The notes under the pieces: generated by a model
The model's input: the letters and a program-made list of their open reading frames with translations, nothing else
The model's database searches: none
Told to the model about the DNA's origin: nothing
Shown: in pieces, positions 26,561 to 62,260 of the stretch
How positions within the stretch are numbered: position 1 is the stretch's first letter
Layout of the letters: each line of letters starts with the position of its first letter
DNA from: Takakia lepidozioides
Taxonomy: Eukaryota > Plantae > Bryophyta
Assembly (NCBI GenBank): GCA_030704615.1
Contig: CM060734.1
Span: forward strand, 63,823,426 to 63,887,425
DNA length: 64,000 bases
Direction of reading: 5' to 3'
Program-made: the position numbers and the translations under genes

Positions 26561-26655
26561 CTGTGGAGGGCCAGTGCTGACTCGTGGAGGCACTGGTGGA
26601 CTGCCTAAGGACTGGCATGTGGTCTTGAAGGCGGAATTTTGACGCTCGTGGAGGG

Positions 26656-27571: not shown

Positions 27572-27573
27572 TT

Positions 27574-27591
27574 TGGCGACCATACTGGGGA
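27574..27591 (+). other. Primer-binding site, probably tRNA-Arg type
   Basis: TGGCGACCATACTGGGGA 2 nt after the LTR; resembles the TGGCGAC...CTGGGG PBS of Tat/Ogre elements. Confidence 0.75.
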
Positions 27592-31200: not shown

Positions 31201-34190
31201 GAGCATCTGTTGTGGTGTAGTGTCAGCAACACCAATTGAGGAAGAAACAAGCAGTTACCCACCACATTTCTATCAAGAAAGAGAAGGGGAAATGGAAATC
31301 GTAGAAGAACCAGCCACTGTAAGTCTACACGATGAAATAGTAACTGGTTGGACAATCACAGCTGACGAGCAGGTGAGGGAAGTGAATGTGGGAACTGAGG
31401 AGAAACCAAGGATGGTGGAGGTAGGAGCGGATTTGGAGCCAGAATTCTTTGAAGCTAAAAGTCTGTTTATCAAATACAGAGATGTATTTGCTTGGAACTA
31501 CGAGGATCTGAAAGGGATACCACCTGAGATCTGTCAACATAAGATTGAACTAGAACCAGGATCAATACCAATTAAACATGCAAGATACAGAATGAATCCC
31601 AACTATGCAGAGAAGGTTGGAGAGGAGATCAAAAAATTGGCTGAAGCTAAATTTATATACCCGATAGAGTATACAACTTGGTTGTCACCCATTGTGATAG
31701 TTCCCAAGAAGAATGGCAAACTAAGAGTTTGTGTGAACTACAAAAAACTGAATGCTTGTACGAGGAAGGATCCTTTTCCCTTACCATTTACAGAAGCAGT
31801 ATTGGACACTGTGGCAGGCCATGAGATGTACTCATTCATGGATGGCTTCAGTGGTTATAATCAAGTGCAAGTGGAAGAAGAAGACCAACATCACAGACTG
31901 GGGTGCTTATGCATACAAAGTCATGCCTTTTGGACTTTGTAATGCACCAGCAACTTTTCAGAGAGTGATGAGTGAATCTTTTCAGGAGTATCTGGATGAT
32001 TTCATGCAGGTATTCTTGGATGATTTCAGTGTGTATAGCTCTAAGAGTGAGCACTTGCATAAATTGGAGTTATGCTTGGCCAGATGCAGGATGAGAGGTC
32101 TGGGCCTGAATCCAGAGAAGTGTACTTTCTGTGTAAACTCGGGGGTGCTTTTGGGACACATTGTGTGTAAGAAGGGACTTCTTGTGGATCCCAGAAAGAC
32201 AGAGGCCATTAAAGCCTCTCCACCTCCATTAAATGTTAAGAGTCTAAGGAGATTCCTGGGACAAACCAGCTATTACAGAAGATTTGTCAGACGGTATACA
32301 CAGATAGCAGCACCATTGAGCAAGCTTCTGAAGAAAGATGCAGTGTTTGCATGGACAGCTGAATGTCAACAAGCTTTTAAGGAACTGACATTGTCAGTGA
32401 CAACTACACTTGTATTGATTAATCCTCACTGACAGGAAATGTTCCATGTTCACTATGATGCTTCAGGAGAAGCATTGGGAGCAGTGCTAGCCCAAAATGT
32501 TACAGGAAGGATAGATTCACCTGTGTACTATGCTAGCCGATTAATGAACAATGCTGAAAGAAATTATAGCACAACAGAAAGAAAAGCATTGGCAATGATC
32601 TATGCAGTAAAGAAATTCAGGCATTACCTGTTGGGAAAGAAGTTTATGTTTTATGTGGATCACCAGGCTCTGATATACCTGGTGAACAAACCTCTGATAA
32701 GCGGAAGAATAGCAAGATGGTTGATAATCTTGCACGAGTTTGAGTTTGAGGTTGTTTACAAGCCTGGGAGGCTGCATCTTGTAGCGGACCACTTGTCACG
32801 GTTATCAACAGGAGAACCAGCCACGGGAGTAGATGATCAATTACCAGATGCGAGTTTATTTGCAGTGGAGGTGCAGGGAAGTGCAGAAGACTGGTTAGAT
32901 TGGCAGTGGCCAATCAGATACTATCTTGCTCATGGTCAATGTCCACCAAGTTATGGAAAGGAGCAGAGAAAGAGAATTGCTATCAAGGCTCTACCTTACA
33001 CTATGGTAGGGAGCAGAATGTATAAGCTAGGACCAGATGGAGTGCTGAAGCGATGCTTATACCACCATGAAGTTAATAAAGTTTTAGAGGAAGTTCATAA
33101 AGGAGTGGCAGGAGGCCATTTTGGAGAAGAGACTACTAGTAGGAAGATACTACTCGCCGGTTACTGGTAGCCTACTTTGTTCAAGGATGTGCACGAGTAT
33201 TGTAAAACTTGTGATGAGTGTCAGAGGCTAGGACCATTACAGAGATCTGGAAAGATGGCTTTGCATCCTACAATGCCTACTGAACCATTTCAGAAATGGG
33301 GATTGGACTTTGTTGGACCAATAAACCCACCAGCCAAAAATACACAGAACAAGCATATAATCACAGCAACTGATTATACTACAAAGTGGGTGGAAGCTAA
33401 AGCTCTGAGAGACAACACAGCTAAGTCCACAGCCAGGTTCTTGTATGAGAACATACTTACACGATTTGGCTGTCCCCTGGAATTTATCAGTGACCAAGGA
33501 AGTCACTTCATAAATGAGACCATAGAACTTCTCACTAGGGAGTTCATGATTGTGCATAGGAAGAGTACGACCTATTACCCACAAGGTAATGGACAGGTAG
33601 AGGCTACCAACAAAATATTATGTACTATCTTGGCTTAGATAGTCAATGCAAACAGAACAGACTGGGATACCAAGCTACTGACAGCTTTGTGGTCATACAG
33701 GACTCCATATAAAGTCACCACTAAATATACACCATTCCAATTAGTTTATGGTATGGAAGCCTTACTTCCAGTGGAGTTTTTGTTACCTACCATGAGAACT
33801 GAATGTGGAAGAAGAATGGAATTGGAAGATTCGATTAAGGTCAGGAAACAAAAATTATACCATGTGGAAGAAGTATGTGCGGATGCAACTGACAACATGG
33901 CCATACAGATGAGAAGGAATGATCAGTTTGATGAAGGGAAGTTAAAGACTTTTAAAACAGGAGATTTGGTTTTGTGGTTGCAAAAGAAGGGAAAGATTAA
34001 AGCTTCTAAGCTTAAATCACCATGGAAGGGACCTTATGTCATACAAAGGATGTATGATAACAATACATGTTACAAACCATCAACAAAGAGATGTTGGGAA
34101 AAGTCAATGCCAACAAGTTGAAAGGATACAGTGGTATCCATGACAAACCGTTGAGACACGATTTGCATATAGAATTACAGGAACAGTCAT
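28260..34190 (+). pseudogene. gag-pol of the Athila/Phygy-like element, with stops and frameshifts
   Basis: Gag (YSGKGDPDVHISQF; zinc knuckles CAKCQNEGHTTTEC and CYYCNQAGHRKAAC), protease (LIDGGSAVNIM), RT (MPFGLCNAPATFQR, FLDDFSV), RNase H (YDAS, YYASR, NYSTTE), integrase (GHFG...CDEC, WGLDF, SDQG, YPQGNGQVE). Confidence 0.95.
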
Positions 34191-34264
34191 AAGTTGTTCC
34201 AATAATACCAACGGAGCATGGAATACTTGTCGTTAAACCAGTTGTGAGCGAAAACACAGGTGTT

Positions 34265-34530
34265 TGAATAGCTGTCACAGCCCAACACAGGGTAACACAA
34301 CCTATCGCAGCCTAACACAAGGTAACACAGCCTGTCACAGCCCAACACAGGGTTACACAGCCTATCACAGCCCAACACAGGGTAACACAGCCTATCACAG
34401 CCTAACACAGGGTAACACAACCCGTCACAGCCCAACACAGGGTAACACAGCCTATCACAGCCCAGCATAGGGTCACACAGTCGCGCACAGCCTGTCACAG
34501 TGCAACACAGCCTGTCACAGTCTAACACAG
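34265..34530 (+). repeat. 30-bp tandem repeat between pol and the extra ORF
   Basis: About 8 copies of CT(G/A)TCACAGCCCAACACAGGGTAACACAGC. Confidence 0.88.
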
Positions 34531-35244
34531 CCTACCAGAATTACACAGTCCATAAGATCAGTGACAGGTGGACGCAGGATAATGTCAGGGAAATGGCCGG
34601 TGCAAGAAAGGACGGAAGCCAGTTTAGAAATAGACACGTGGAAGTCAGGCCGCGACACACAGCTGAGAAGGAAGTGCAAGAACAGGTGTCATCAAGAAAG
34701 AGGACAAGAAGGGCCGTCAAAGTACCTACCTAGCACGTCAATTCAGATGAATGGCGGGGCCATTAATGAATACGGAAAAAGGTCAACGGAACAAACGCCA
34801 AGTAAAGAAAAGCGCATTCCTTGTCACGTGTGTTATCCTAGTGGACAGTCCAGCATGGAAAGTCCACTAAAGGAAATTAAATCTGAAATCCAGTCACAGC
34901 GGTTACATCCAATCATAAACAGGAGGCAGGATCAAGAAATCGAAAGGGTTTTGAGCGCAAGAGTCGGCGTCGTTCCAAGTAACGGGCGTCTCGATGGGAC
35001 AGACCATCAATGCTATAGCTTTGAAGCTATGAAAGAACTAACAGATTATACGCTCGCGATACTACTTACGCAGTGGCACGGGGACAGAAGAACAGAGAGT
35101 ATCTTTTCTCTTGATCGATGCTTGCAAGCCCCGCTGGCTTACAAGAAATTACCCATAGCATTTTGTGGCAACCATACGTTTGTGCTTTGTGCCCTGCAAG
35201 CATTACTTCAGTTGTTACAGCCACAACCTTTCTGTTTCTCTAGA

Positions 35245-38200
35245 ATGAAGAGAGTAAGAGGGATGGAGGACATCAGGGTGAAAAGCACCACAATCCTGCA
35301 GAAACAAACGATTACTACTCCACAGGCGGTGAAGTTACTGAAGGACCTGCGATTAGAAGGATTGCAAAGCAAAGATTGGACATTGCACCATCGACAGTAC
35401 ATGTTACAATTCTTGGAGAACTTTGAGCCTAAGACAGGAGCAACAACGGTGAAGGGAGTTGAATTAGAAGTTACTCCCCTATACCTACAACAATTGTTTG
35501 AATTGCCATCAGGTCAGGTGCATGTGGATGAGCACAGGGCAAGATTGCAGATTAGGGATTTATTTGAAGAAGGGAGTTTCTTTAAAACTCAGGGTTATGC
35601 TTCTACCAAGGCCGTGTACCCAGGGCTAAGGGAGGTAGGCCAGATACTGAACGTTATGTTTGCCATGAAACAGAACCAACAGTATTTGAGCAGATCCTTC
35701 ATAGAGGAAATACTCAAGGCCCTGAGAGGAGAAGAGGTAGCATGGGCGGACATAATGTACAACGGACTGGTAGAGGAGATGAAAAGATTGCAAGGCACTG
35801 CCGCAAAGTCTCCTATCATAGTGTCTGGACCCATCATTGCACAAATTATTCTAGACTCGTGCATACTAGATGCGAGAGAAAGGAAGGAGATGGGAGTGTT
35901 TGAGACAGCAACCACTGCCATAGAAGAGCAAGGTTCTTCACAGGGTGAAGGGGGATTGACAGAGCGAAGGACTGTCACATTGGAAGCAGAACCATTGGCT
36001 ACGAGACAGCCGGAAGAAGAAGTTACTCATACTTTTGTGCAAGAAGGGGCACAACAGCACGGAGGGATGTGGGTGCAGACAACACAACCCGTGGAGAGAG
36101 AACAGGAAGTTACTTCAGTAGCACAGCCATCACAGCCAGATGTTCGGCTTGTCTCAATGTTACCTAGAGTTGTCCATGCAGTTCCACCAGAAATTATTGA
36201 TTTGGAGAAAGAAGGGTTAGATATACCCACTACAGAACAAGTGGTGGCAGACATTGAGAAGGGGGACCTTCTCTATGAAAACTCTAGCTTGGGCAGGGAA
36301 ACAGGGGTACAGGAAGTGCAAAGTCTGTACAGGGAAAGCCCTAATGTGCATGTATTACCCACACCTGTGGAGGAGGTTCCAGAGGTAGAACAACATGACA
36401 CAGCAGCACCTGTGGAGAAGAAGGGGGTTGAGAGAGAGGATCTAGTAGAGTAGTGGCCTGAGTGGTTTGTGAGAAGTAGTACATCAAAGGATGACAGTGC
36501 AATGTGCCACCCTCACAAATGTTCTGGAGCAAGCCACAACAGAAGCCAACAAGCAGAGGGAGAGATGTGTAATGGCAGAAACTGAGGTAGTGAAGCAAGC
36601 CCAACTTATTGTGGACCTCAAAGATACAATATGTCACAACGAAAGTGCTTTGTAGCAGTACAAACAGGTTGAGGCTAACCAGGAGAAGTACATTGTAGAG
36701 TTGCAACAGACACTTATGGCAACTAGGAATCAACTCTCCGTGGCTAGCAAGGCAGCACGGGAAGCCAATAATCTGGCTGCTGCTTATACCAGCTTAGTTG
36801 AACCTCATGAGAAACGCATGCAGGGATTGCAACAGCAGTTAGATGCCTACAGATTCAAGGAGGAGCAGAATCTCAGAGGTGCTACACAGGACAGGGTGGA
36901 TGACCAACTTTTGAAAGTCTGGTTAGCACAAGGGCCAGTGGAAGGGAAAGCACCAAGAAAGCTCAACCAGGAGGAGATGAATGACCTCAGGCTACAAGTG
37001 CAGAACATTGCCACCACTACTATAGACAATGTCTATAGTAGGATAGCAGAGCTACAGGAAGATGTGGATACACTGCAGACTCAAGTGGAGGACTTGAGTT
37101 CAAACATTGACAAGAGGCTCATGATTCCTGAAGAACACCTCATGGATGCTTACTTGAAGGCTAGAGCTCTTATTTTCCAATCTTCTTGCAAAGAGGTGCA
37201 GGAGGCACCAATGGTGGAAGGGCCAGTGGCACCAATACCACAGGAAGTGGTTGTGCAAATGACTGAACCTGTTACTACAACACAGCCGACACAGAATGAG
37301 GTATGGGGAGATGCTGCTTTCAACCCACCAAGAACTCATGCTGCACGTGAATACAATCGAGCTATGATCATGCCATTCAACGAAATTCTTAGTGTCTTGG
37401 ATTTGGCCTGGAAGGAATTCAGTCCTCCACAGTCATTCACACACTATTATCAGATTATGCGCATTTGGTTGTTAGTGGCAACTCGGACTAAGGTTCTTGA
37501 AATGAATCAACTCATTGAAGATCATCATTTTGCGAGATACTGGTCTGAGGCAGGCACCATGTTGAAGGAATTAATTGCCTTCCAAGTGGTTCACGGGCAC
37601 ATCCACACCAAGACCGAGGAGGTAGCCAGTTTAGTCATGGGCTGTGGAGTATACTACACTGCTTGTTTCATTGCACGTTACCACATTGAGCAGCAGAAGA
37701 TGCAATCCAGATTTCTGACTTATTCCAGTGGAAATCATTGGACCTTACCTGTGGTGCCACATCATACGTATTTATATGATGTAAAAACCATGTTGCAGAA
37801 TGATTCACAACTCTGTTCATGGTTTAACTTGGCTTGGAACATCTTGGCCAAAGAAAAATTCGGCTTTGATGATATTTTTGCTAAGGGAAAAGCAGCTTGG
37901 AGGTATTTACACACTTCCCAAGTAATCGGAACACCTCTCATCTATATGGACCAGGAGTTGAGGGTGTTCACTAACATGGCTTGTGACCGCTTACGACAGG
38001 TCATGAATGGTAAACTTCCAGACATGGTGGGCCAACACTGCATGCCAATCATCGTTCCTCAGAAACCAAAGAAGATCAGAAAACCAAAAAACCGCAGGAC
38101 TGACGAAGATTCAGACACTACAAGGGAATCTTCAGAGAAATCTTTTGACATATGGGAAGAGTATGAAAACGCACAGATGGACAAAAGACGACGGGGATCT

Positions 38201-38377
38201 CCTCTGTCTGAGCCATTACAGCCTGTTCAATCAAAGGGCAAGAAATCAATTTCAAGTCAAGCTCAAGCATCTCCATCAAGCAGTCACAGAACTCGGGCAC
38301 GCACACAGAGCCCTCCAAAGAACTCTCACCAACAGACAGGACCAAGTTCACAAAGGTTTGCTGATCCTAAAAAGTAA
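35245..38377 (+). pseudogene. Extra 3' ORF of the gypsy element (~1040 codons, internal stops), function unknown
   Basis: ORFs 34561-36453 and 36701-38377 are linked by a stop-containing segment and lie in different frames. Coiled-coil-like middle; FLENF...VKGVELEVT...LFELP resembles Athila accessory ORFs. Confidence 0.65.
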
Positions 38378-38416
38378 ACCGTGAGGACACGACTTTCTGA
38401 GAGAGGGAAGGGGTAA

Positions 38417-39294
38417 TGTTAGAGGGCTGTCTGGGACTTAGTCACATTTACAGGGGATCTGTGGAATACCAGGGGATCTGTGGGACTTAGACACATTTAC
38501 AGGGGATCTGTGGGGTACCCTTAAATTTTGCAGTCACAGCCAGTCACAGCCACACAGCCATACCCAGCCCGACACAGCCCGACACAGCCACACAGCCATA
38601 CACAACCCGTCACAGCCCGACTCAGTTGCACAGCTAGTCACAGCCATACATAGCCCGTCACAGTGCACACAGCTGTCACAGTCATAGGGAACGCTTATCA
38701 TGACAGGGAACGACTGTGGGGAACAACATCTGCGAAGGGAACATGTAGTTCACGGATGACGGTTAGTGAGGGAAGCGGTTAGAACAGCTGATAGGAGATA
38801 AAATCAGGAGCGGGGACGGGAGAGGGGGACTTCTTGGATCACTTCTTGGGGGATCATTTCTGGGAAGTGAGAGGGCGGATAGAGGGGAGCTTGGGAGTAC
38901 AAGGAGGATGTTACCACAGCAGAAGGGAGGATGAGACAATTGTGACTTAGTTAGTATAAGCTGGAGAATTACATAGAGAGGTAGATTAGAGAAACTGTGG
39001 CATCAATATGTATCTGATTCTTATTAATCTGATTCTTATCCGATACAAGCACACTGTGTAGAGAGACCTGAGAGAAGTTGTGCATGAATGGAATCAGGGG
39101 ATCAAAGGAGCAACCATGAACTGAGAATATGAAACCAATAAGGAATATAAATTGGAAACCCAACCATGATTCACTAGCTGCAGGTCATGTCTGATTGTTC
39201 CACACGGGCTGAATGCTTAGAGATATCCAACTCTTCTATCTTGGAGTTTCCCCCTCGGATAGCAAAGGGATGGGTGAGTAAAAGCCGCGCGACA
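38417..39294 (+). repeat. 3' LTR (878 bp) preceded by PPT GAGAGGGAAGGGGTAA
   Basis: Matches 26656-27571, differing mainly in CACAGCC repeat number plus a few substitutions. Confidence 0.95.
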
Positions 39295-39903: not shown

Positions 39904-42814
39904 GTGCCACTAGTTGTTGGGGAGAGTGCCGGTTCGAGCACTAGCAATACTAGTGGGTACACGAGACGAGGTGTGCGGTTTAGGCCACCTTCACCTCCTG
40001 TGTCTTCTACGGAAGGTTCTGTTCGGATTGTGAATCAGGAGGACTCACACCGGCGGTGCAAGTTGTTTCCTTGCCATTATTGTGGGACACAATGGAGGAG
40101 ATGTATGGAGCTACTAAGGGGCCTCGTAGGTACTCTGGAGCTGTGGGCACCATCGAGTTGGATGATTTTATCCAAGAGTTTGATAGTTGGTGTGATTTGC
40201 AGCAAATGCGCAATCCACAACTATTTACACCTTTCACGGCATGGAAGGGGCTGTTTCAGCACCTTGAGGGGCCGCCTATGGATGATTACCATGAGTTCAG
40301 GCGGGGGCATGAGGTTGAGATTGAGGAGTGGAGGATGTACTGGTCACCCGACTATGTCTCCATCACTAGGGGCACTAGAGCCACGAGGGCATTGGCTACA
40401 CCTACCGCTGCAACGGCTGCTTCAGCAAGCAGCAGTGGGATTAGTGGGACTGGTGATACCAGAGCTACGACGTCCACCCAAGCTACTACTGCACCAGCAC
40501 TAGTGGCGGTGCCTGCCTTCAACCCTGTTGTGGACTTCTTCGAAGAGTTAAGAGGGAACTACCAAGGGGTGAGGACAGAGAAGTTGCGGAGCTTGCAAGA
40601 GTTCCAACGGAAGCCGACTGAGAGCTTGAGGGAGGCTTTCACTCGCATGAGGCGCTTGATAAATGTAACCCAAGGGGTTACAGAAGCTCAGGCAGTCCAA
40701 TTCTGGTATGGGATATTGGACAAGGAGCTGAGGAGAAGGGTGCGGGATGCAACTCTCCTACAAGCGGCCCAACCCACCTTAACAAATGTGTTTTTGCTGG
40801 CAGAGCGGCTAGAGCTCAACATGGTGGAGGAATGAGTGGTCATGGTGGGATTTGCTAAGGAGACCCCACGGGGTAGTGGTGCTCCTAGCCAACCACTACC
40901 TCAACGTGCTCAAGGCAACAAGGGGGTCCAGGTGAAGCCAGGGAAGGACAGAGAGGACCTCAGATGCAGGGGTCTCTCCCTTCATTTGCAGGCCAACAAC
41001 GGGTGGATGTGGTGTGCTGGACATGTGGAGGACCCCATGTCAAGAAGGATTGCCTAGAGGGAGGCAAAGGGCTAGCATATGCACAACCTGCACAGTTGCG
41101 GTGTGGGCATTGTGGCAAATATGGGCATGGAGAGGCCCAGTGTTATGGTTTGCATCTTGAGTTGCGCCCAGGCCAGTTCCAAGGGAACAATGGTGGCTGG
41201 GGGCGGGGTGGAGCAGCCCAGAGAGGACGAGGTGGCCAGGCACGAGGTGCAGGCCAAGGGCAAGCTCAACATGGCCAAGGACGCAGAGGTCAGGGTGGTG
41301 ACCAAGGCATGGCCAACCGGCTTCAGTAGCTAGAGCAAAGGCTCGCTGCCATGGCTACAGCTCAGGTGGTACCGGCTCCAAGGCCGGATGGTCCACCTCC
41401 TGCTCCTGATGGAGGAGATATGGGAGGCATAGGATTTATGTGTGGGGCAGCACTACCACTAGTGCAGGTGGAGTCTGCTGCAGCCGTGACTCGAGGAGCA
41501 GCACGAGTTCCTGAGCCACGAGGTGCAGAGGTGGAGTTGGATCCACAGCGTGGGGAGGCAAGCCGTCAGGCTAGGCTTCCTCAGTCATTCACATTGGTGG
41601 AAATATTGTCGACGCCATCTATGGCACCTAGTTCTCGCCCGACTGTTACCGAGGCGGAGGTTACTATGCCATTGGGGAGAGCTACACGGGTAGCACCACT
41701 ACCTAGTGTTGCCAAGGCTACGGCAGCTAGTGTGCTGCTGGGAGCGGCCACATCTATGTGCCAGGCTCCATTGTTCTCGGCTACCATGATTGCGACGCCG
41801 GGGGTAAGACCAGCTGAGGTGTTCAGACTGGCAGCTACACTCTGTGAGAGTGGGGAGGTTACTTCATCTTCTGCGGAGATAGTGGGAGGTGTAGTGCCGG
41901 AGGGATCCTCGGATTTGAGGGTCAAGACTGCCACGGCGGCGCCATGGCAAGCTGCAGCTGCCAGGTTGATGGAGCTGCTAGCTAGGCCAGCCATTGAGCG
42001 CACCATGGTGACACCTAGAGTTGTTTTGTTAGACAACCAGGATGGCATTTTCTGTTTGAGTGGACCGATAGGCAAGAGGTACCGGCCACTGCGGGTCTTG
42101 TTGGACTCGGGAGCTCAGCCATTGATGCTGGGCAAAGCTGCTATTGCAGGCTTGGGCCTCACGGAGGCGGATATGGAGCCTTGTCCTTTCTAGATATAGA
42201 CGTCTCTGGGAGGATTGGAGCAGGCTCGGGGCATGACACGGCATGAGTTGGCTATCAAACTTCGGCCGGATCACCCTACAGATGGCTCAGTGATGCGAGC
42301 CAAGGCCATTGTGACAGACGCAGTCTCGTACGATGTCCTGGTTGGTGGGGCAGTGTTGTACCCCATGGGCTTCACCCTGGATTTTTGGGAGGAGTCAGCT
42401 TCCTATAGGCTTGGATGGCAGTCAGGGAAGGGCCGGCGTGTGCAGCTCCCTGTGACGTTCATAGGAGGAGTTGCGGTTGCCCAACGAGGCAAGATGCCGA
42501 CACTGGCAGCATTCACAGCTGCAGTGACTTGGCCTCAAGAGTTGCTGGAGGGCAATGCCCATGGAGAGGATGTGCCACCTCTAGCAGAGCAGGATGACAT
42601 ACATGGTGCGGCGGAGTTGCCTGCCATGGTTGCTCATACTCCATTGTGGGGTACGAGCAAGGATTTGCAGCAGATTGCTGATTGTCGTGTGCAACAAGCC
42701 TGGGTAGAGGCTTTTGTACCGTCAGGAGAGGAGGAGAGTGCAGGTATTGCACCAGGACCACCTCAGTTGTCACCATTGGATACCACACATATTGTGTGGG
42801 AGTATCCGAATGAA
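39904..42814 (+). pseudogene. gag and aspartic protease of the outer gypsy element
   Basis: LDDFIQEFDSWC, FQRKPTESLREAFTRM, zinc knuckles CWTCGGPHVKKDC and CGHCGKYGHGEAQC, protease VLLDSGA...YDVLVG. Stops at 40833, 41327 and 42191. Confidence 0.88.
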
Positions 42815-45696
42815 GGCATTTGCCTTCTGGAATTGTTTGGCGGGATCAGCACCGGATTGGCTACTGTGCTACATGCAGGTGTGCGGGTAAGGCGTTATGT
42901 AGTGTGAATGCAGGGGAGTAACATTGAAAATTTTGTTGGGAATCAAATTACGGCATTGGTGAAGAAGGGAGTGCCTGGTACTAATGTCGGGAGGGAATTA
43001 CCCAGGCCTACAGGTAATTCCATGGGAACACTATGCTCTTGCTCTGCCAGGACAAAATATGGCTAAGTCATAACATGCGCATTTTTCATCCTTGGAATGA
43101 ATGATTTTCGTCGCGTATGTTTAACCTAGAAACTCGAGCTGAGAAAAACGAGGAGGAAGACGACGGGCAACTCTTCACAGCTGCTGCCGTGGAGTTGTCA
43201 GGCAGGCTGGCTTGGGAACTTACACCTGCGCCATGTGAATCAGCTTGCCTTAAAGCGCGACGTTAAGGGATCTGCTTGGCATTTTGTGCAAAGAGAAGCG
43301 GTGCCTCTTTCTGCGTGGTAATAATCAATTTTGAAAGCTGAGCAGGTGCTAAGAGCGGTGCACTACCGCTGCCGCCATTGTCTTGAAGGGTATAGTTATG
43401 AGGAGATAGAGCGCAGCAACAGCTGTTGGGGAATGAGAAGTGCAGGCTGGTGTGGATGCGACTCGGGTTATCTGTAATTAAGACTTGTAGTTACCTTCTG
43501 TCTTAGAGCTGTAGGAGCACATCAATCCTTAGGGCAGAAGTACACATGTAGAAGGATAGGGTAGAGGTTGGCAAGCACAAGGATGTTGCCAGCTGATGAA
43601 GCAAGCCGTCATGACATGATGAGAACTGGAATCAAGATGAGAAGAAGCGTTGAATATGGCTGATGACAGCGATGGTGAGGTGCCAGCTTAGCAGGCAGAA
43701 CCACCGCTTCACACGAGTATAAGACAGATAAGTTCTAAGAGTGTGGGCTTCTCTTTTTGGGCACTTAGGAATGACTTTGTGAAGTTTTTGGAACTGTCTC
43801 TTGTATCTGCTGAAGGGGACAAAAATGTGAGGAGTAGAAAAGGCCTTTGAAAATGGAATGAAGACACTGGAATTCAAACCAGGATAGGGTGGAGATGGAT
43901 GCACCTGTTGTTACACTGTCATTAGGAAAAAGATAGAGGGGACAAGGATAGCTCACATCAGGGTCAGAATGGTTGCTGTTGTTGTGTTCATTTTCTTTAT
44001 TTTCAGTGTCTTCAGCCAGCATAAGCAAACCAGCCCTGGATGTTAAAACAGTGGAGCCAGTGTAGAATTAGCTTGGTGGATAAAGGAGAACAGGGATGGT
44101 CAGACAGAAACGGATTTGAAGAACTGAGAGGGATGACGTGGATGGGGAAGAAAAGTCAATACTGTTTTGGGGTTTGGATCTGATTTATAGAAGTGTTCTC
44201 AACATGTGAATGACTGAGGTTTGCATTTGAGGAGAAAAAGAGAGCTGTCAGGGTGGGTGATTTGAGATCTGTAGAAGGGTTGTGAAGCACCTTGGCCAAA
44301 TAGGATCCACTTGGGGAAAGATAGTGCAAGGAACAGTCACTGGAGAGAGAGAAAAAGAGAAAGACTGACAGAGGGGCAGATCATGTCTTGTAACCAAGGT
44401 TGACTTCAATGATGGATGCACTGGATGCCTGGCTGGATGTGCATTTGCATTGCATCATAGCCATGCTGTTGTGAAAAAATGAGGAATCCACACACCAAGG
44501 AAAAAGGATTTGAGAGAAAGAAAAAGTGAAAAGGGAGAAGGGTTGATGAGGGATGGACAAATGGAGAGGCAAGGTCAAGAAGACATGAACCCTGAATGAT
44601 CAAACTAGTGGGCCTGCAGTTCATGGCAGATCTGAGCTGTCCACCCGCCTAGACCGTGATCTCATTACAAAAAGGGGCTTCCGACGTGTTGCAGACCAAG
44701 GGCACTGCCCACAAGGGCAGTGTTTATCACTGACATAGGGCTGATTGCATCACTGAATACATCGTGGCAGCATAGTTGGTGCTGTACCTGCAGGTAGAGG
44801 ATGTTGTGTAAAAGGTAGAACCAAGAGTGAACAACAATTTGACTCCCCATCCATGTCTTCTCTTCCGCTGCGGCGTGGATGAGGATTGCTTGAACTCTGA
44901 TCACGAAGGAGCTGAGGGAAACCCACAGCCAAGTGACGACAGTGGGACAGATTAGAAGAACCTTCTTTCTTTTGCTCCGCTTAGAATGGAAGGAAGCACA
45001 ATTAGAATTATACAGAAGGGGATTCACGCCCCTTCTTTTTCACACTACAGTTACTTGTATTGGAGAGGGATGAGACTGCACGACCTGTCTCACTCCGTCA
45101 TGTTGCTCAGATGGTGCAGCAGTACCCTGAGTTGTTGCCGGTGTCTGCAGTTCGTGGATACCAGCAAGCCTTGCTAGCAGACATTTTGTTCCTGGGGGCG
45201 CAGGATTTGGAGCAGGTGGGCTCCATTGATTTGGTAGTGGCATGTTGGCCCTGCCAAGGGCATTCATCAGCCGGACATGGCAATGGATTGCGAGACTCGA
45301 GGTCGGGTCTGTTTTGGGAGATGGTGCGGGTTTTGCGCCACTTGCAGCTTCATCAAGCTGTATCTCCAGCATACATCTTAGAGAATGTGCCACTGATGGG
45401 CGATTCTCGAGCCAGGGTGATGGCCAGTGTGCATCAAGTCCGGTCGTGGCTTGGGTCAGCAGTGTTGCTGGATGCAGCTGCAGTGGGCTCACGGGCTCAT
45501 CGTCCACGGCTATGGTGGACTAACTTGATGCCACCCACACTGCTCAAGCGTGCATTTGATGGGGTGCAGCGGCCAACACACCTCACAATGGATAGCATTT
45601 TGGACACATGGAGGCAGTCTCAACGTGTGAGACACGATGACCGTTCGCCTTTGGCAATGGTCAACAGGGTGGGTCAACCACGAGTAGCATTACCTA
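42815..45696 (+). pseudogene. C5 cytosine DNA methyltransferase domain (DNMT3-like) within pol, split by a 2.15-kb insertion and truncated at the 3' end
   Basis: 42815-42897: LLELFGGISTG (motif I), in frame with the protease. 45054-45696: ERD (II), IDLVVACWPCQGHS (IV), RSGLFWE, YILENV (VI), DAAAVGSRAHRPRLWWTN (VIII). Confidence 0.9.
42898..45049. mobile_element. 2152-bp non-coding TG...CA insertion (solo LTR or Ginger-like non-autonomous element)
   Basis: 11-bp perfect inverted termini TGTAGTGTGAA / TTCACACTACA, 4-bp TSD GTTA (42894-42897, 45050-45053). Removing it restores the methyltransferase sequence RRYLY. Confidence 0.88.
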
Positions 45697-46744
45697 CATG
45701 CCGCACTAACCGTGCACATTGTGTGGGGTGAGGCACAATCCTCACCCAACCATCCTCCCACACTCGAAGTAGGTGTATCCCCTCCCACTTGAACCTCTTG
45801 GCTCGTTGCAGGATCTGATCCCTCTCCTTGGCAGTCACAGTGGCTGTCGTGTCTCCCGTGCGGAGGTAGCCCAACACAGCCGAATCCTCATGTATATCTC
45901 TGGCACCACCTGGCTCATCACTAGCCTCAGGGTCCTCAGACACTCTATCTACAGTCATCCCTGTTGTAGGTCCAACCTGACCTCCCGATGCCAAGATACA
46001 CAAAAATGCAGATGCGTGCCATCCCAGCACCATCTCCTTGTCCGTCTCACCATGCCACCGAGCTCCGGTGTCATCCTGTTGGCTCGTGCATGGATTGCGA
46101 CTCAATCCATCCGCATCCCGATTGACCAAACCCGGTCGATGCACAACCTGAAAGTCATACTCCCGGGGTATGAGTGCCCACTGTGCAAGCTTCCCCATAA
46201 GCTTGTCTGACTCCATCAAGCACTTGAGTGGTTGGTGATCCGTGACAAGGGTGAAGAGATTGCCGTATAGATAGCACCTGAAGTGTGCCACGGCCCACAC
46301 TGTAGCTAAGCATTCTCCCTCATATGAGCTATACTTAGACTCTGCAGCGTTGTTTGAGCGGCTAGCATAAGCTACTACGAACTCTCTTCCCTCATCATCC
46401 ACCTGTGTGAGCACCGCTCCAAGCCCCAGCATGCTCCAATCTGTATGCAGCTGAAAAGGACGCCCCCTGATAGGTCGTCTCAAGATGGGCGCCGAGGTCA
46501 ACCTCGCCTTGAGCTCTTTTTAAAGCTCATTCCTGCTCATCTTCCCACTGCCACTTCTGGTCCATCTTGGTCAGCTTGGTTAGAGCCTTTGCAATGGCAC
46601 TAAATCCCTTAACAAACCGTCTATAATAGATTGCTAACCCCATGAAAGCTCAAACTCGGCTCACATCCGTGGGGCATGGAATCTGTGCAATGGCCTCTAC
46701 CTTAGTCTGCTGCACCCCCAATCCTCAAGGATATATCATGTGGC
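45697..46744 (-). pseudogene. Inverted duplicate of the RT C-terminus, RNase H and linker of the outer element
   Basis: FQLHTDWS...VAYASRSNNAAESKYSSYEGECLA...VTDHQPL; reverse complement of ~59719-60770. Confidence 0.9.
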
Positions 46745-49700
46745 CCCGGGGGGTGCACTCTTTATAAACTGTGCGTATCACGTGCGTTCGTCGCCTAATA
46801 AAAAAACCCCCTGTATACGGGTCCTTGGATAATTTATACCCCCTCTGTACATACTTTTTGAAGAATATAAAATCCCCTCCTGTAAATATACAAAAATTTA
46901 CAATTTTCGAAAAGTACCCCCTTCTGTATGTATATTCTCATTTTTCATCATTAAAAATAACCCTCCAATATGTATATGTATGTTTTTATATTATATCGAA
47001 TTTATTCATTTAAAACATAATAAAATCTAACAAATTAATTAAAAAAATTATTTGCCTTTGATAAAGTTGTCAAAGACTTTTCGGTCATTTGCATCAAGAA
47101 CATATGTGTTTGACTTGACATTGTACTTTAAACATGCTAACGCGATAATGGAATCCAAATCAACCATCATGTTATCCGTCAAATCGTACGTATAGACCCC
47201 TCCTCGAATTTTTTGGTACCATGCTAACCCAATCTCCATATGAGAGGGACGCTCCAATAAATCAACAGAATCCCTACATTCTACAAACCGCTTATTGATT
47301 TTCTTCCGCATTCTTTGAACCCTGCCCAAATACCAAGTGCCTTTGGTTGCTCCTCTGCAGGTTTTCCCTGGTCTACCATTCCTGTTTGTAGTTTGGATCG
47401 CAGTCTCCCCATCAACAAAAAATACAGCACAATCCGAACCCAATCCCAAGCTCGTGGCTTTGTTGCTGGTAGTTGGTTTGTTTTCTCGACAAAACAACAT
47501 CGATGCACTTCTTACTCGTGTCAATCTATCCTTGGATAGAGTAGGGTTGCCATTGAGTTGGCTAACCAAAGTGCTTTTGAATATGGTCTTCCCGTCTACT
47601 TTGACAAATGGAACCACTGCCTTCGATCCATCTTTCTCTTGTTCAAACTCATCAATGACAGCATCCAGAGTATGTCTCAATTCACTTTGAACAAGTACCT
47701 CTTCTGCATGATCATCCAAAGGTTGGCTCAAAACATCCTCCATTGAATTCGAAGGCCCGCACACCAATTCATCTTCCACGACCTCATTTTGAATATGTGT
47801 GTCTGCATTAAGAGGACAAATAGAATCTATGGCATTGACATCATCACCCTCCTCTTCCATGCTTTTGAATAGCTCGACCTCCATTTGTCTCTCAATTGTC
47901 CATGGCTCATTCCACCAATCCAAGTTTGTTGCTTTGTTTGGTTTCATCCCAAGTTTATGGCATAAAAGTTGCGCTTCTAGAAATCCAGTTTTCAAAGCCT
48001 CCACAATGCAATCATCCGATTGGACAGTAGAAAAGTCGGACAAATCAGCAAGGGGGATACCTGGCTTCTTCTCCAAAGAAGACCATATGTGTTCTTGTTT
48101 CTTGTGAGCTCTTGAGAACTTGGGTCCTTTTGGATTTGCCTCGAACTCGGATATGCGTGTTAATGCTCCCGCACTCTCAATCAAATCACACCCGTCATAT
48201 GTCCTCTCATTCCGTGACATACCTCCCACTTTGCTGAAGAATATTTCACACACATCTGAACCAACAAGGCTCAAATGAACTTGCACATGATTAAACTTAT
48301 CCTTGAACAATTTGATAAGTAGAACCACGTAGTGGCATGAAATTTGTAAATCCAAGTATGCTTCCCTGCTAATGAAGAAGGATTTCAGATTATACACCTC
48401 GTGCTGGAATAGCCACAACTTCCACAATCTGAAAAAAAAATGATACCTTCGCAGCAGATTGTACCCTCTCACACAATGACATGTGAGGAGACAAAAAAAT
48501 GTCGATGTAGCATGAAATGATGTATAGGTAAATTTCAGTACCTTTGGTCCTCTCTCTTCGATGATTCACAGTTGATTGTAACTCCCTCAAACAAGCTTGC
48601 ACCTTCCGAGATGCCAGTCGTTGAGCTGCTGCCCAATTCTGTCGATCTTCTCTTTTGATATCACATTCCCGAAGTCCATGCTTGTCCACTGAAAATGAAT
48701 GGTAGACCAATAACACATGATTCAATGTAGCAACCTCATCACCCAACACCAAAGTCCGTGATGCACTGTCCAAGGGATTTACCAATTTTTTCCCATTGTG
48801 GATGAAGTCCTGATCATGGAGTCCGTATATATCTCCCCCGTTGCACACTCGACCTGTAAACAACCATCCTTCCCAAGGGATGCAAAATCTATTTCCAGCC
48901 CCATTGGCATAATCTTCTAACATCACTTTTCTCCTCCTACTATCTCCGTCTGAAGCATGCCCAATTATAGGCCCAACCACGTCCCTCACATATTTGTCCC
49001 ACAACTGTCTCACCACTTCCCATTGTGATCTCACAAAATTGTTGTCAAATCTATTGCAAGTGAGCTGGATTACCAATACCAATCGAGGTAACCGTACATG
49101 TAGAGGATTTGCTATCAACACTCTAGCATAATGGGCAACCACATTGTTTTTGAATGCCTCCACAATATGTTGGTACCCTGATTCCCCTTCTCCCACTTGC
49201 ACCACAAAATTTGAAATACATACATGGTTGTCTTGAAGCCCACAAACCCGAGAAAGGTGTCATCCCTAGCAATCCAACGTACCAATCGCTTCACAACAGT
49301 TTCATCTTCGGCCACCATCACTGGGATGCTTCCCAATGGAATATTTGCATCTTCCATCACATCTCTGTAAATTCCAGCCACATGCTGAAATATATCATCC
49401 GTTTCTCCCGCTCTATACTTCAAACCTTTCCTCAAAGACCGTTTGTAGTATCAATAGAAGGACCCCCCACATTTGAAGCCAAAAAATGATGCAATCTCGG
49501 ACCCCCCCAAAGCTGCACAGTCTCAAACATTGTTTTTGTGCTAGTACCATACCTCTTCCCTTGTGGAGACCTGTCAATATTCTTGCCCATATCAACAAAA
49601 AATCCCACAAACTTTCTTTTCCTTCAAAATCCCCCCTCCTATGTGCATCAACAATATCACGACAAAATTTGAGAACATCTCCTCTTTCAATTGCCTCAAT

Positions 49701-51210
49701 CCCAGACTCCTTCAAACTCCTACATCGCACAGACAATGATGCCACTTTGGTCCTGGCCTCCCACAATTTGAACCTCAACTGCCTCAACTCCTGTCTGTTT
49801 TTGTAAACTTGTTTGACAATCTCCGCATTTCCAAGATATGACAACCTTCTTCCCTTGCCAGTATCTCTCTCCCCTCTACATTCCATGGCACCTCTTTCTC
49901 TATATACCCTCATTCTGAAGTCATTTTCCAAGGGAATGGAAGAACATGCTGAACATCTCAAGTTTGGAAATGGCTCCCCATCCAATGACACTCTAAAACA
50001 ATCCGCGTGCCAAAACGTACCAACAACCTTATGCTCTTGATTGTTTAGAGTGATGGTTGCATTTGTCAACGGCTCGACATACCACTTCTTTCCTCCCTTG
50101 CTATCTTGAAGGAATGGTTTCAGACTTATTCTCTGCTGGTTGTACTCCCACCATTCATCCCATAGGCCCCAACACAAACTGCTTCCACAATCTCAAATCT
50201 GTTTCCAGGATTGTCCTCACAAAACCGAGCGACTTCCTCTAATGCCTCCTTCACCCTGTTCTTCTTTGCGTCTAATGCTTCATCTGCATTTACAGGGCTG
50301 ATGACACATTGTGATGAACCCTTCCCATGACGCCTCTCATAGGCTATGCGATGCCCCTCACTCCTCAAATGAGATCTCATAAAGTTTGCACATGCATCAT
50401 ATGGTTTGTTTTTCCCAGACCGTGCATAAACATCCTCACACTCAACACACCATATGTGGAACATTGCTTGTCCTTGTTGATCCTTTGTCATCAGCTCAAA
50501 CTTGTCACATCGTCCTTCTGCAGAGATTTTCCTTTCAACGGCTCTAATCTCTTTCTGCCATTTTTGAATATCGTTGGATGTAGCCAACGTGCTGCACAAT
50601 CTACCATATCTCTGCTGAAGTGCATGCTCATGTGCATGGTCTTCATTTCCACCATTGCCAGCAAAGGGTGTATCAGGGTCCATCCTCATCTTGGTAGACA
50701 CTGGTGTCGGGTCCTCACCTGGTCTGTCCTCATGCAAGATCGTAGAACCACTGGAAGATAGAGGTCTTTTCAATCCTTGGTCCCCATCATTTTGGTCTGA
50801 AATCTTAATGTGTACAGTATCCCCTTTCAGAACCATCCTCTCTTCTTGCTTGGCTGAAAGGACACTACCCCCCATGGAAAGGAAATGAAATTTTGCTGAG
50901 ACAAGCTCATCACCTATAATTTCTGCTCGGATGCATTTGTATGTGACACCTTGCATAGTGAACACAGAACCAAGCCTGTTTGGTGATGCATCTCCTCCAA
51001 CAAGCAGGACTTTTACTTCCAACCCTTCTTCCATGATGAGTTCACCTGCAAAATGCAATGAAAATATTTCAAATCAGACCTTGATAGACCAATAACAAAG
51101 CACCCGGGTTGGAAGGTTCCAAAGTCCTGTTTTATACAACCCTATAGGCTGTCCAAGTAGGAACTACGTTCATAAGAGGATGAAATGTATACAGAAGCAA
51201 GTACCTGATT
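46745..51210 (-). mobile_element. P-superfamily (P element/THAP9-like) DNA transposon, copy 1; transposase 51034 to 47048, frameshifted
   Basis: Motifs VAEDET, GHASDGD, DFIHNGKKLVN (DxxH..K..N), DRQNWAAAQRLAS, TEIYL...IDIF and GSDVCEIFFS. N-terminal C2H2-like finger. Terminus CCCGGGGGGTGCACTC. Confidence 0.72.
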
Positions 51211-51539
51211 GATGAGTTTGATGTTGTTAATTTTTTGCTGCTGCTATTGACCAAATGCTGCTACTTCCACTGCTGGTAGCCCTCTTGGGTGATCCCGAAC
51301 CCACAGTCCATCCTTGCATCAGCGGCTAGCCCTCCCTCCACACTAACATATTTAAATACAAAGTTATGTCAAACTCCCTACGATGTTGCATGAAGAAAGC
51401 TCACCTTGTTGACAATATTGTCCCACCGCTGTGGATCAAATTTATAGAACTCCTGCCAGCGCTGTTCCTTGCTCCAAATCTGGCCCTCTTGGATGATTTT
51501 GCACCCACGATCCTCTCCCTGCATCAACAGCTACCCCCT

Positions 51540-54160
51540 CCCTCCACACTAACAATGCGTACATCATGCCTCTGCAGCTACTACTGTGGCTTCCAGTTGA
51601 CCATCTACCCATCCAGGTTTCTTGTAGCTATCATTCCACATGGAATCATAGGTAATCTGGAGCTTGGAATCCGCCATCTGGAAATCTAGGGACGACTCTG
51701 ATAATAGGGAAAAACAGGCTGAAATGTGTTGAAGAAGGTACCTTCATTAGCAGTCCCTTGTTCTATCTATTATCTTTTTTTAGGTACTGTCATGCTACCA
51801 CACTCGGCAGCAACTTGCAAAGTCACTCCAGAGCACCGCAGATCCACCCAACGAGCTAACTTACAGAATTCAATACATATGCTTCAGGGCTGAGTCTGAT
51901 GAGAGGGAAAAACAGGCTGAAACAGGTCAAACCAGAAGGTCAGGCTGAAATACGTTGAAGAAGGTACCTTTCATCAGCAGTGCCTTGCTTTATCAATTGC
52001 GCTGTTGCCGCTGCTGTTTCCAGTTGACCATCCACCCACATTGTCCCACCATTGACTGGGGTCAGAAAAGTGTCTCATTCCAAAGCTTCTCTTCATCTCT
52101 GTGGTGCTATTGTAGGGTGGCTTCAATGCCCAAGTGGGCAAAGGGCTCCATCAGGAAGATATCATTGGGTCTTCTGGTGAGGACGAGCTGAATTCTAATG
52201 GCAGACGGTTAATTAACTGTCTGGAAGAGCTTCAGCTTTTGACCTTGATTAACAAGACAAGAGGTGACCAAGTACAGTGGACTCGTGAGAAATCCCAAAC
52301 TGGGGAACGTTCCATTGTGGACTATATCATAATGGACAAAAATTTGTTCCCCCAGTGTGCCAATGTGTTGATCGACAGAAGTGATATTGGTACCTCTGAC
52401 CACTTTCTGGACTGAGATCAAAAGGTGTTTTCCCAAGGCCAGAGTAGAAGAGATTCTCAAGGACCTGGACCTGGATCCGCAAGTCTTGACCCTGCTGGAT
52501 AAATCAGACTTAGAGGCTGTAGTGTCCAAAGCCATGTCTATTGCCATGAGATTGTCTGATGAAAATGAAGTTAGGCATAAAACTTCCCTGAACTTGTTTC
52601 TAGTCAGTGACATGGGGGAGGACATCTTGGATGACCTCAAGGGTCCACCCACTCTCGGCACTAGACTGAAATTTAAACTCAGGGAAGGAAGCCTACCTTT
52701 GAACATGAAACAGAAGCAGAGAGGAAAGGGGGAGTGCACTCTCCCAAGTGAACCTGCATCATTCAGTTGGCAAGACCGTGGCTGAAAAATTGATCCATTT
52801 GAAGACACCACGGTGCAGCTGAGCACAGCCTGACATGACAACAATTAAACATCATACTGAGACAAGAGAAGCAGTCAAGGACACAGTCATGCATATGGCA
52901 GCAAGTGATCACCCTTCAAACATGATTGAAAACATACATGAGGTCAAAGGCAATAAGAAATCAGCGAAGGGTACTGCAGCTAACAGTTGGAGTGTCTTTA
53001 AAGACAAAGGGAAGAGAAAGAAACACTTCACTGGCAATGAGGGGAGGCTGTGGAAACGCCAAGAGGATGGCACAAATGATAGAAATAACAGGCTGGGCAA
53101 AGGATCCTGCAGGAAGAAGAAAGGGTGTGTCAGCATGGAAAGGACGTGCGGCTCATTCCAACAGAAAGGGGAACATGAGTCTGAGTGAGAGGGAAAAACA
53201 GGCTGAAACAGGTCAAACCAGAAGTCAGGCTGAAATACGTTGAGAAGGGTACCTTTCATCAGTCCCAGTGCCTTGCTTTATCAATTGCGCTGTTGCCGCC
53301 TGCTTCGTTTCCAGTTGACCATCCACCCACTATTGTCCCCCCATTGACTGGGTCAGAAAAGTTTCTCATTCCAAAAGCTTCTCTCAAATCTCTGTGGTGC
53401 TATTGTAGGGTGGCTTTCAATGCCCAAGTGGGCCAAGGGCTCTCATCATCAGAATATATCATTGGGTCTTCTGGTGAGGACGAGCTTAATTCTAATGGCA
53501 GACGGTTAATTAACTGTCTGGAAGAGCTTCAGCTTTTGACCTTGATTAACAAGACAAGAGGTGACCAAGTACAGTGGACTCGTGAGAAATCCCAAACTGG
53601 GAACGTTCCATTGTGGACTATATCTAATGGACAAAAATTTGTTCCCCCCAGTGTGCCCAATGTTGTTATCGACAGAAGTGATATTGGTACCCTGGTACCC
53701 CTTGACCACTTTCTGGACTGAGATCAAAAGGTGTTTTCCCAAGGCCAGATAGAAGAGATTTCTCAAGGACCTGGACCTGGATCCGCAAGTCTTGACCCTG
53801 CTGGATAATCAGACTTAGAGGCTGTAGTGTTTACCAACTTTGAAAGTCTCGAGGCTGAGCCAAAAGCCCAGGCCCCTCCTGAGGCCTAGTTTTTGGGCAA
53901 ATCACACACAGCAGATTGATTCTGTGTGAAGTGTTTTCTAGAGGATATCTGGAAACCCGGATTAATACTTATACTTATCGATGGTATCTTACTACCAACG
54001 TCGCCCTGTTCCTTTGTTCCCACTGAACTGGGCGCGGGGTCAATGGCCAAGGCTACGGCAAACAATGTCTTATGAGTACAATCTCATCCTTATCATCCCT
54101 CGCCTTTTGGAAAATTCCACCATAATTGAAGGCAATTGGTTGTTGTACTTAACTGCACGA
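51540..54160. other. Mosaic of PDF-motif/PPR-linker fragments (minus) and LINE fragments (plus)
   Basis: Minus strand: PRFPD...ITYDSMWNDSYKKPGWVDGQL and DEEKLWNE..SDPSQWWDN. Plus strand: NSNGRRLINCLEELQL...SIVDYII...SDH, LGTRLKFKLREGSLPL, and a LINE-like 3' end near 54030-54060. Confidence 0.7.
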
Positions 54161-56179
54161 ATGTTCCCCTTTCTGTTGGAATGAGCCTCACGCACCCAAC
54201 ACGACATGCATGAGCACGCACACACCCTTCTTCTTCCTGCAGGATCCTTTGCCCAGCCCTGTTATTTCTATCATTTGTGCCATCCTCCTTTGCCGTTTCC
54301 ACAGCCTCCCCGTCCCCTCATTGCCAGTGAAGTGTTCTTTCTCTTATTCTTCTTTGTTTAAGACACTCCAACTGTTAGCTTGCAGTACCCTTCACTGATT
54401 TCTTATTGCCTTTGACCTCATGTATGTTTTCAATTTCAATCATGTTTGAAGGGTGATCACTTGCTGGCCTATGCATGACTGTGTCCTTGACTGCTTCCTT
54501 CTTGTCTCAGTATGATGTTTAATTGTTGTCATGTCAGGCTGTGCTCAGCTGCACCGTGGTGTCTTCAAATGGATCAATTTTCAGCCACGGTTTTGCCAAC
54601 TGAATGATGCAGGTTCACTTGGGAGAGTGCACTCCCCCTTTCCTCTCTGCTTCTGTTTCATGTTTCAAAGGTAGGCTTCCTTCCCTGAGTTTAAATTTCA
54701 GTCTAGTGCGAGAGTGGGTGGACCCTTGATGGTCATCCAAATGTCCTCCCCCATGTCACTGACTAGAAACAGTTCAGGGGAGTTTTATGCCTAACTTCAT
54801 TTTCATCAGACAATCTCATGGCAATAGAATGGCTTGGACACTACAAACTCTAAGTCTGATTTATCCACCAGGGTCAAGACTTGGGGATCCAGGTCCAGGT
54901 CCTTGAGAATCTCTCTACTCTACGTCTGGCCTTGGGAAACACAACGACCTGTGATCTGAGAAAAAGAGTTCAGATGATGTCATGAAGTACCAATAACTCA
55001 CTTCTGTCGATCAAACACATTGGCACACTGGGGGAACAATTTTTGTCCATTATGATATAGTCCACAATGGAACGTTCCCCAGTTTGGGATTTCTCACCGA
55101 GAGTCCACTGTACTTCTTGGTCACCTCTTGTTCTTGTTAATCAAGGTCATCAAAGCTGAAGCTCTTCCAGACAGTTATTTAACCGTCTACCATTAGAATT
55201 CAGCTCGTCCTCACCAGAATGAGCCCAATGATATATCTCCTGATGGAGCCTCTTTGCCACCACTGGGCATTGAGTGCACCCTACAATAGCACCACAGAGA
55301 TGAGAGAAGCTTTGGAATGAGACACTTTTCTGACCCCAGTCAATGGTGGGACAATGTGGGTGGATGGTCAACTGGAACAGCACAGCAGCGGCAACAGCGC
55401 ACAAATGATAAAGCAAGGCACTGCTGATGAAAGGTACCTTCTTCAACGTATTTCAGCTGAGGGCACCTTCTGGTTTGACCTGTTTCAGCCTGTTTTTCTC
55501 CCTCTCATCAGACTCAGCCCTGAAGCATATGTATTGAATTCTGTAAGTTAGCTCGTTGGGTGGATCTGCGGTGCTTCTGGAGTGACTTTGCAAGTTGCTG
55601 CCGAGGTGGTAGCATGACAGTACCTAAAAAAAGATAATAGATAGAACAAGGGACTGCTAATGAAGGTACCTTCTTCAACACATTTCAGCCTTTTTTCCCT
55701 ATTATCAGTCGTCCCTAGATTTCCAGATGGCGGATTCCAAGCTCCAGATTACCTATGATTCCATGTGGAATGATAGCTACAAGAAACCTGGATGGGTAGA
55801 TGGTCAACTGGAAGCCACAGTAGTAGCTGCAGAGGCATGATGTACGCATTGTTAGTGTGGAGGGAGGGGTAGCTGTTGATGCAGGGGAGGATCGTGGGTG
55901 CAAAATCATCCAAGAGGGCCAGATTTGGAGCAAGGAACGCGCTGGCAGGAGTTCTATAAATTTGATCCACAGCGGTGGGACAATATTGTCAACAAGGTGA
56001 GCTTTCTTCATGCAACATCGTAGGGAGTTTTGACATAACTTTGTATTTAATATGTTAGTGTGGAGGGAGGGCTAGCCGCTAATGCAAGGATGACTGTGGG
56101 TTCGGGATCACCCAAGGGCTACCAGCAGTGGATAGCAGCATTTGGTCAATAGCAGCAGCAAAAATTAACAACATCAAAC

Positions 56180-62011: not shown

Positions 62012-62260
62012 TGGCAGTGGACATGACTGGAGGCAACTAACAAGACATGGGAGGCCAAGCTCATAGGAGTCAATACATGAGATCCCAAGCTCAAGTTCAC
62101 CGGTTGCAAGACGGCGACTAACGATGGGGCAACTCTTGCACCCGGCCTCTTGATCTATCGAGTTTGAGTGTAGTAGGGATAGTGGTGGAGGACTTAGTGA
62201 GGCTATGGTCACTATCACATCTTATGGCTACCTAGACTTAGAGGGACCTAAGCACCAGCT

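Follow-up and report, generated by a model that had tools for sequence, protein, structure and literature searches.

What a retrotransposon gains from a cytosine methyltransferase of its own has been an open question since 2018, and the known hosts of such elements are hard to work with. The same question is raised by a 64,000-nucleotide stretch of DNA from Takakia lepidozioides (hereafter, the window), in which a DNA methyltransferase (DNMT) domain lies among the remains of a Ty3/gypsy element. By its sequence, we assign this element to the known Gypsy-DNMT3 family as a new land-plant member: as in that family, the polyprotein region of a Gypsy element contains a DNMT3-like domain without introns, and the Ty3/gypsy order of gag, protease (PR), reverse transcriptase (RT), RNase H (RH), and integrase (IN) is present in its relatives.

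The window copy probably spans positions 10451–62957. Its probable 5′ terminal repeat B (10451–10802, + strand) starts with TGTCA and aligns with the 3′ B with 322 matches, 9 mismatches, and 21 gap columns, and its flank is the same as the 3′ flank of the element at three of four bases. A predicted self-priming site follows (10804–10818, +), a 15-nt perfect complement to a stretch within B. This B is tied to the coding region via two nested insertions, each with intact target duplications: a CACTA DNA transposon in the 5′ leader (11855–25284; CACTA terminal inverted repeats, TTT target duplication) and an unrelated Ty3 element without a DNMT (26656–39294, +; LTRs with 844 matches and 14 mismatches, GAGGG target duplication). 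Once both are removed, B at 10451 leads to gag at 40092. Among the public contigs placed on 10300–27000, no joint across the CACTA insertion was found. The nested Ty3 element itself contains two long orphan ORFs of 660 and 573 amino acids between its integrase and 3′ LTR (34471–38377), neither with a Pfam match above the cutoff. Decayed PLS-class PPR genes occur at 9370–10420, 23900–24300, and 62992–64000, with best matches of up to about 60% to gymnosperm and lycophyte sequences; one PPR fragment matched Ginkgo, conifers, and lycophytes at 37–61%, with a single angiosperm among the named matches and no near relative.

The gag gene with CCHC knuckles (40092–41330, +; PF03732 E 8e-4, below the cutoff; 57% to Marchantia P0008) is interrupted by two stops (40833 and 41327) and a frameshift. 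It is followed by an aspartic protease (41981–42400, +), which aligns with those of the relatives and weakly matches PF13650. As a preliminary description of this DNA had claimed, motif I of the DNMT (ELFGGI, 42830–42847), in the N-terminal piece of the domain (42803–42897, +), shares its frame with the protease active site (LLDSGA, 42098–42115), although a premature TAG at 42191 intervenes. The domain is then interrupted by a 2,152-bp insertion (42898–45049), also recognized in that description, which has TG...CA ends, 11-bp terminal inverted repeats, and a 4-bp target duplication, and is missing from sibling contigs. It is likely the solo LTR of another element, and no ORF of >125 amino acids lies wholly within it. 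The repeat was far deeper than its surroundings in public run X7, a run guessed to be RNA. Beyond the insertion and a 1-bp frameshift near 45059, motifs II (45060), IV (PCQ, 45246), VI (ENV, 45378), and VIII (AHRPRLWWTN, 45495) were found in the order described, together with the start of the target-recognition region (45054–45696, +). This downstream piece alone matches PF00145 above the curated cutoff (E 1.2e-12), whereas the 31-residue motif I piece alone has no match. The identity of the window DNMT to its relatives is 70% for Calypogeia, 68% for Marchantia, and 35% for Klebsormidium.

An inverted duplication of ~15 kb (45697–60770; arms 45697–~53800 and ~54160–60770) truncates the DNMT beyond motif VIII, and the loss of motifs IX–X and the RT N-terminus, correctly noted earlier, is attributable to it, as is the loss of the linker. 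The arms are 94–98% alike, but 85% near the center, toward which the identity drops, and the left junction has a 2-bp microhomology; the duplication may be either a genomic rearrangement or an assembly fold-back. Within it, positions 45697–46746 are an inverted copy of the RT end and RNase H, with PF17917 matches. At 46747–52000, and in the inverted copy of this region, an element inserted in RT contains four ORFs of 259–505 amino acids with no significant Pfam or PDB match; their motifs may point to P-element-type transposases. The remainder of the element lies on the + strand at 59638–62957. It comprises the C-terminal half of RT with RNase H (59638–60445, located by tblastn with P0004/P0005), a frameshifted integrase ending in a PHD finger (60773–62010; PHD PF00628 E 2.6e-10 in the intact relative L064), a polypurine tract (62256–62270; the same motif precedes repeat A in L047, L063, and L064), and a 3′ terminal block, A-GC-B-A (62271–62957), in which the A copies have 172 matches and 5 mismatches and the palindrome GACA-GC-TGTC lies at 62443. 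With stops at 40833, 41327, and 42191, frameshifts, an insertion, and an inverted duplication, the window copy is dead several times over.

In terms of enzyme class, the C5 cytosine methyltransferase motifs I, IV, VI, VIII, IX, and X occur in order (IX–X only in the relatives). A 15-row DNMT profile ranked DNMT3A first (6e-25), followed by DRM (2e-14), HaeIII (2e-10), and DNMT2 (4e-9), and human DNMT3A was the best match of the window DNMT piece among solved structures. The structure predicted for the DNMT domain of L064, not of the window copy, had a pLDDT of 96.3, with DNMT3A as the best fold (TM 0.71/0.83); an earlier model from nine sequences (pLDDT 41.6) was dropped. Across 84 rows, the catalytic Cys and Glu never vary, and the RxR arginines are conserved. 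With profile and predicted fold nearest DNMT3, and a motif order that is not permuted, we place the domain in the DNMT3 class. Between subfamilies, its dN/dS was 0.09–0.17 in six of eight pairs, the other two being saturated. A value of about 0.1 indicates purifying selection; it is like that of the protease (0.10–0.28), above that of RT/RH/IN (0.02–0.06), and below that of the linker (0.37–0.74). One within-family pair of decayed copies had a DNMT dN/dS of 0.42, like their other domains. The CpG observed/expected ratios (0.44–0.53 in the window copy and 0.27–0.69 in the relatives) exceed the 0.17 of the neighboring DNMT-less Ty3 element, so the DNMT elements show no extra CpG loss of the kind that would support self-methylation.

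The domain is not peculiar to the window copy. In public contigs with the same organism label, sibling copies carry the DNMT, join across the site of the 42898–45049 insertion, and run on past 45696. In run X1, the summed contig depth, which does not represent copy number, was 0.9–1.2 million over the DNMT, 0.5–1.1 million over gag and protease, and 1.0–1.2 million over RNase H, but 0.01–0.05 million inside the insertion. The joined siblings and the similar depths mean that the DNMT travels with the family in this host. A search restricted to longer proteins yielded 25 relatives from 2548 candidates (16 Marchantia, 2 Calypogeia, 1 Sphagnum, and 6 without a name). In a metagenome scan, 80 of 91 loci were kept, most of which resemble the Sphagnum protein, and 61 of the 63 closest had gag, PR, RT, RH, or IN beside the DNMT. 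Two of the loci from the same moss-rich data, L073 and L074, are possibly another lineage: their DNMT is more distant (36%), and RT lies 3.3 kb downstream of it. A profile search gave 442 clusters at E ≤ 1e-30; the names among the 30 looked up of the best 150 of these were Closterium, Klebsormidium, Mesostigma, and Scenedesmus, and a Cymbomonas protein (P0368) was a further relative. The relatives include elements of Marchantia, Calypogeia, Sphagnum, Closterium, Klebsormidium, and Mesostigma. None of the named matches was a protein of a fern, lycophyte, or seed plant, and a search of viral contigs gave nothing beyond seven distant phage methylases. A 913-amino-acid JGI protein (P0375), which combines a protease-like region 56% alike to the Klebsormidium element with a DNMT in which the catalytic Cys and Asn are missing, is either a decayed or a domesticated copy.

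Two layouts were observed: protease–DNMT, in 65 proteins, and RT–RH–DNMT–IN, in 68, of which 49 have a PHD finger. Proteins of the second layout are P0107 (Scenedesmus KAF8056149.1), P0368, and 66 others, the named members being chlorophyte. The two layouts are separate in both the DNMT and RNase H trees, suggesting that the domain moved or was captured twice. In FastTree analyses, the window copy grouped with liverwort and moss elements (support 100 for DNMT and 98 for RNase H), and the two trees agree. The trees contained no host DNMT3 and left out rows with DNMT spans outside 250–400 residues; the DNMT tree was rooted with phage and bacterial rows. All 135 retro-DNMT rows fell on one side of the DNMT tree (support 99) relative to the phage rows, with Klebsormidium outermost, a result from FastTree alone with a long-branch warning and without host DNMT3 rows. 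As for the suggestion that the lineage persists from charophyte ancestors, such descent is compatible with the range of taxa and with both trees; horizontal transfer may also have occurred.

The preliminary description had regarded the DNMT as embedded in pol. A DNMT3-type domain is indeed fixed in a Ty3/gypsy family related to the Klebsormidium element, but an in-frame stop splits the DNMT from RT in all 40 related loci that contain a DNMT and the RT start (TAG in 28 and TAA in 12), so this part of the claim does not hold for the nearest relatives. The loci fall into roughly four subfamilies, and one locus is represented more than once. When translated in the RT frame, 39 of them have a stop followed by Gln at the same place, and the remaining one is frameshifted. 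CARYY follows the linker stop in 40/40 loci, compared with 5 of 442 other in-frame stops; this count is partly by construction, in that the script looked for a stop followed by CAR, although the next two bases were unselected and are pyrimidines in 40/40. The full CARYYA was found in five loci: every one of the four divergent copies, but only 1 of the 36 that are Sphagnum-like. The window copy itself has lost this junction. The four divergent copies keep YYA through three different codons (CCA, TTA, and TCA), and the flanking peptide is barely alignable. After the stop, most of the Sphagnum-like copies read CAA CCC ATG, a sequence at which translation could also reinitiate. Of five copies, only one had a stable structure 3′ of the stop.

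CAR YYA is the readthrough signal described for tobacco mosaic virus (TMV; PMC2754532, PMC2194720), and from this context the stop in the nearest relatives is likely leaky. The intact locus L064 encodes a Gag–PR–DNMT protein of 1369 amino acids, then TAG CAG TTA, then an RT–RH–IN–PHD protein of 1047 amino acids, and the Klebsormidium protein GAQ93235.1 consists of Gag–CCHC–PR–DNMT and then ends. A continuous protease–DNMT–RT ORF, as had been expected of intact copies, proved exceptional: 53 of the 65 protease–DNMT proteins end without RT, and a continuous frame occurs only in an algal side branch and three spliced-looking Marchantia gene models. Given that the DNMT ends the Gag–PR frame at a conserved stop with a TMV-type context, it is likely made at the Gag level. 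Such dosage is not needed family-wide, considering the nine algal proteins with DNMT and RT in one frame without a stop and the 68 relatives of the second layout.

The ends of the elements are equally distinctive. They take the form B...A-NN-B-A or B...A, without identical LTRs on both sides, which we read as a permuted LTR; no A was found before B in any of the 17 5′ B rows. The complete locus L047 is B-coding-A-GC-B-A with AAGG duplicated, whereas L039, L040, and L016 are B-coding-A with exact 4-bp duplications; L044 also has one. Overall, the target duplication was an exact 4 bp in five of seven two-ended copies and agreed at three of four bases in the other two. In the window and in seven other loci, the link between A and B is the palindrome GACA-NN-TGTC, and in all five copies tested (the window and 4/4 others) B is followed by 15–16 nt complementary to a stretch inside it. 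A DIRS-like repeat order (A-coding-B-A-B type) can be seen in L047 and, via the chain of nested insertions, in the window; identity as DIRS was rejected because of the rve integrase and the 4-bp target duplication. Some retroviral integrases cleave palindromic circle junctions. If reverse transcription started at the polypurine tract in the ordinary way, the cDNA would have A-NN-B on either side, and a two- or one-repeat circle opened at the palindrome with loss of NN would give exactly the two end forms seen. The permuted ends fit a route in which circular cDNA is opened at a palindrome within it and then integrated, as judged from the repeat structure, while later A–A recombination can be another route to the B...A copies.

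Taken together, we consider it reasonably probable that the window element is a decayed Gypsy-DNMT3 member in which the DNMT ended the Gag–PR frame before a likely leaky stop, was made and packaged at the Gag level, and likely methylated the element's own cDNA. Readthrough of UAG-CAR-YY(A) would supply RT, RNase H, and integrase–PHD, and the protease would free the DNMT inside the particle. Self-primed reverse transcription would yield A-NN-B...A-NN-B cDNA, and one- or two-repeat circles would be cut at GACA-NN-TGTC and integrated as B...A or B...A-NN-B-A. Before integration, the DNMT would place 5mC on the cDNA, probably at CG by analogy with SymbioDIRS-Dnmt3, and this may shield the cDNA or preset its chromatin state. 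More tentatively, the family may be an old Ty3 lineage of green plants that extends from Mesostigma to land plants, combines a de novo DNA methyltransferase packaged at capsid stoichiometry by TMV-type readthrough with pre-methylated circular cDNA cut at a palindrome by a DDE integrase, and has a chlorophyte sister lineage that moved the enzyme beside the integrase.

Instead of the cDNA, the DNMT could modify the target site or host chromatin close to it, arriving there together with the PHD-tipped integrase. L064 does have a PHD finger behind its integrase, as do 49 of the 68 second-layout proteins, where the DNMT adjoins the integrase, but in the protease–DNMT branch the DNMT lies on the Gag side of the stop and would be unjoined to the integrase in most molecules, which makes this explanation unlikely. 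We also find it quite improbable that the DNMT is a self-limiting device, in which abundant enzyme would methylate copies in the genome in trans and thereby hold down their number: the predicted Gag-level expression would leave free enzyme, and the idea is raised in the discussion section of PMC5890265, but the family is abundant in the host, with a summed DNMT depth (not a copy number) about 50-fold that of the inserted repeat. We give similarly little credence to retention of the domain for nucleic-acid binding or RNA methylation; the inactivity of the Klebsormidium enzyme in yeast (PMC5890265) and the absence of CpG depletion would suit it, but the catalytic Cys, Glu, and RxR arginines are conserved and DNMT2 ranks far below DNMT3. 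That the window copy alone captured a host DNMT3 gene, or that the motifs match by chance, is ruled out by the sibling copies and relatives, algae to mosses, that carry the domain at the same position, and by the agreement of the DNMT and RNase H trees (without host DNMT3).

The stop-codon layout leads to predictions on the dosage and location of the DNMT, and the permuted repeats lead to the prediction of an unusual route of integration. A complete DNMT and open Gag–PR–DNMT gene models are found among the copies of Marchantia polymorpha, a genetic model for which methylation mutants are available, and the question of benefit thereby becomes testable. The permuted repeats also mean that LTR finders would likely miss the family; REXdb demanded ordinary paired LTRs (PMC6317226) and would likely have missed such elements.

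Among open-access papers and preprints (subscription papers being outside the scope), the family was found only in PMC5890265, PMC12344493, and the preprint 10.64898/2026.05.21.726589, the latter two placing it in "streptophytes" in one sentence each; the portions covered of 10.1101/363937, PMC9033089, PMC11982613, PMC10952607, and PMC6317226 do not mention it. Within the same body of literature, in the parts covered, the readthrough-type stop layout and the permuted-repeat integration route were not found in print. The closest known system is KnitGypsy-Dnmt3 of Klebsormidium nitens, reported by de Mendoza et al. in 2018 (PMC5890265) and named Gypsy-DNMT3 in the preprint 10.64898/2026.05.21.726589. 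Like the window family, it has Ty3 domains, an intronless non-permuted DNMT3-like domain under purifying selection, and DIRS-like repeats (A-coding-B-A-B), and the K. nitens protein GAQ93235.1, which shares 35% identity with the window DNMT, is by inference one of the copies in that paper. In contrast to the Pol ORF in which PMC5890265 puts the DNMT, here it ends the Gag–PR frame at a readthrough-type stop, in a land-plant host. The sections covered of PMC5890265 do not mention readthrough, self-priming, or circle integration, although its Fig. 4c may already show two frames. KnitGypsy-Dnmt3 failed to methylate yeast DNA, a result that the authors call inconclusive, while SymbioDIRS-Dnmt3 methylated CG in yeast (PMC5890265). 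The latter resembles the window family in having a DNMT3-like domain in a retrotransposon with split repeats (PMC5890265), but is a DIRS element with a tyrosine recombinase, whereas in the window family the integrase is of the DDE type (rve) and target sites are duplicated; similarity to a Symbiodinium kawagutii protein (P0376) was weak (34% over 100 residues). The Tcn1/Tf1-type and Chlamyvir chromoviruses are likewise Ty3 elements of non-seed plants and algae, with predicted self-priming in Tcn1 and 4-bp target duplications in a minority of plant elements (REXdb, PMC6317226), but the window family has a PHD finger instead of a chromodomain, a DNMT, and permuted repeats. Host plant DNMT3 and DRM belong to the same enzyme class; the domain of the window family differs in its lack of introns and of the DRM motif permutation and in its retrotransposon flanks. 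Finally, in TMV, SIRE1, MuLV, and Tca2, an in-frame UAG followed by CAR-YYA leads to a minor C-terminal extension (PMC2754532, PMC2194720), as predicted here, but the stop of MuLV and Tca2 comes after gag, whereas that of the window family comes after the protease and DNMT and before RT.
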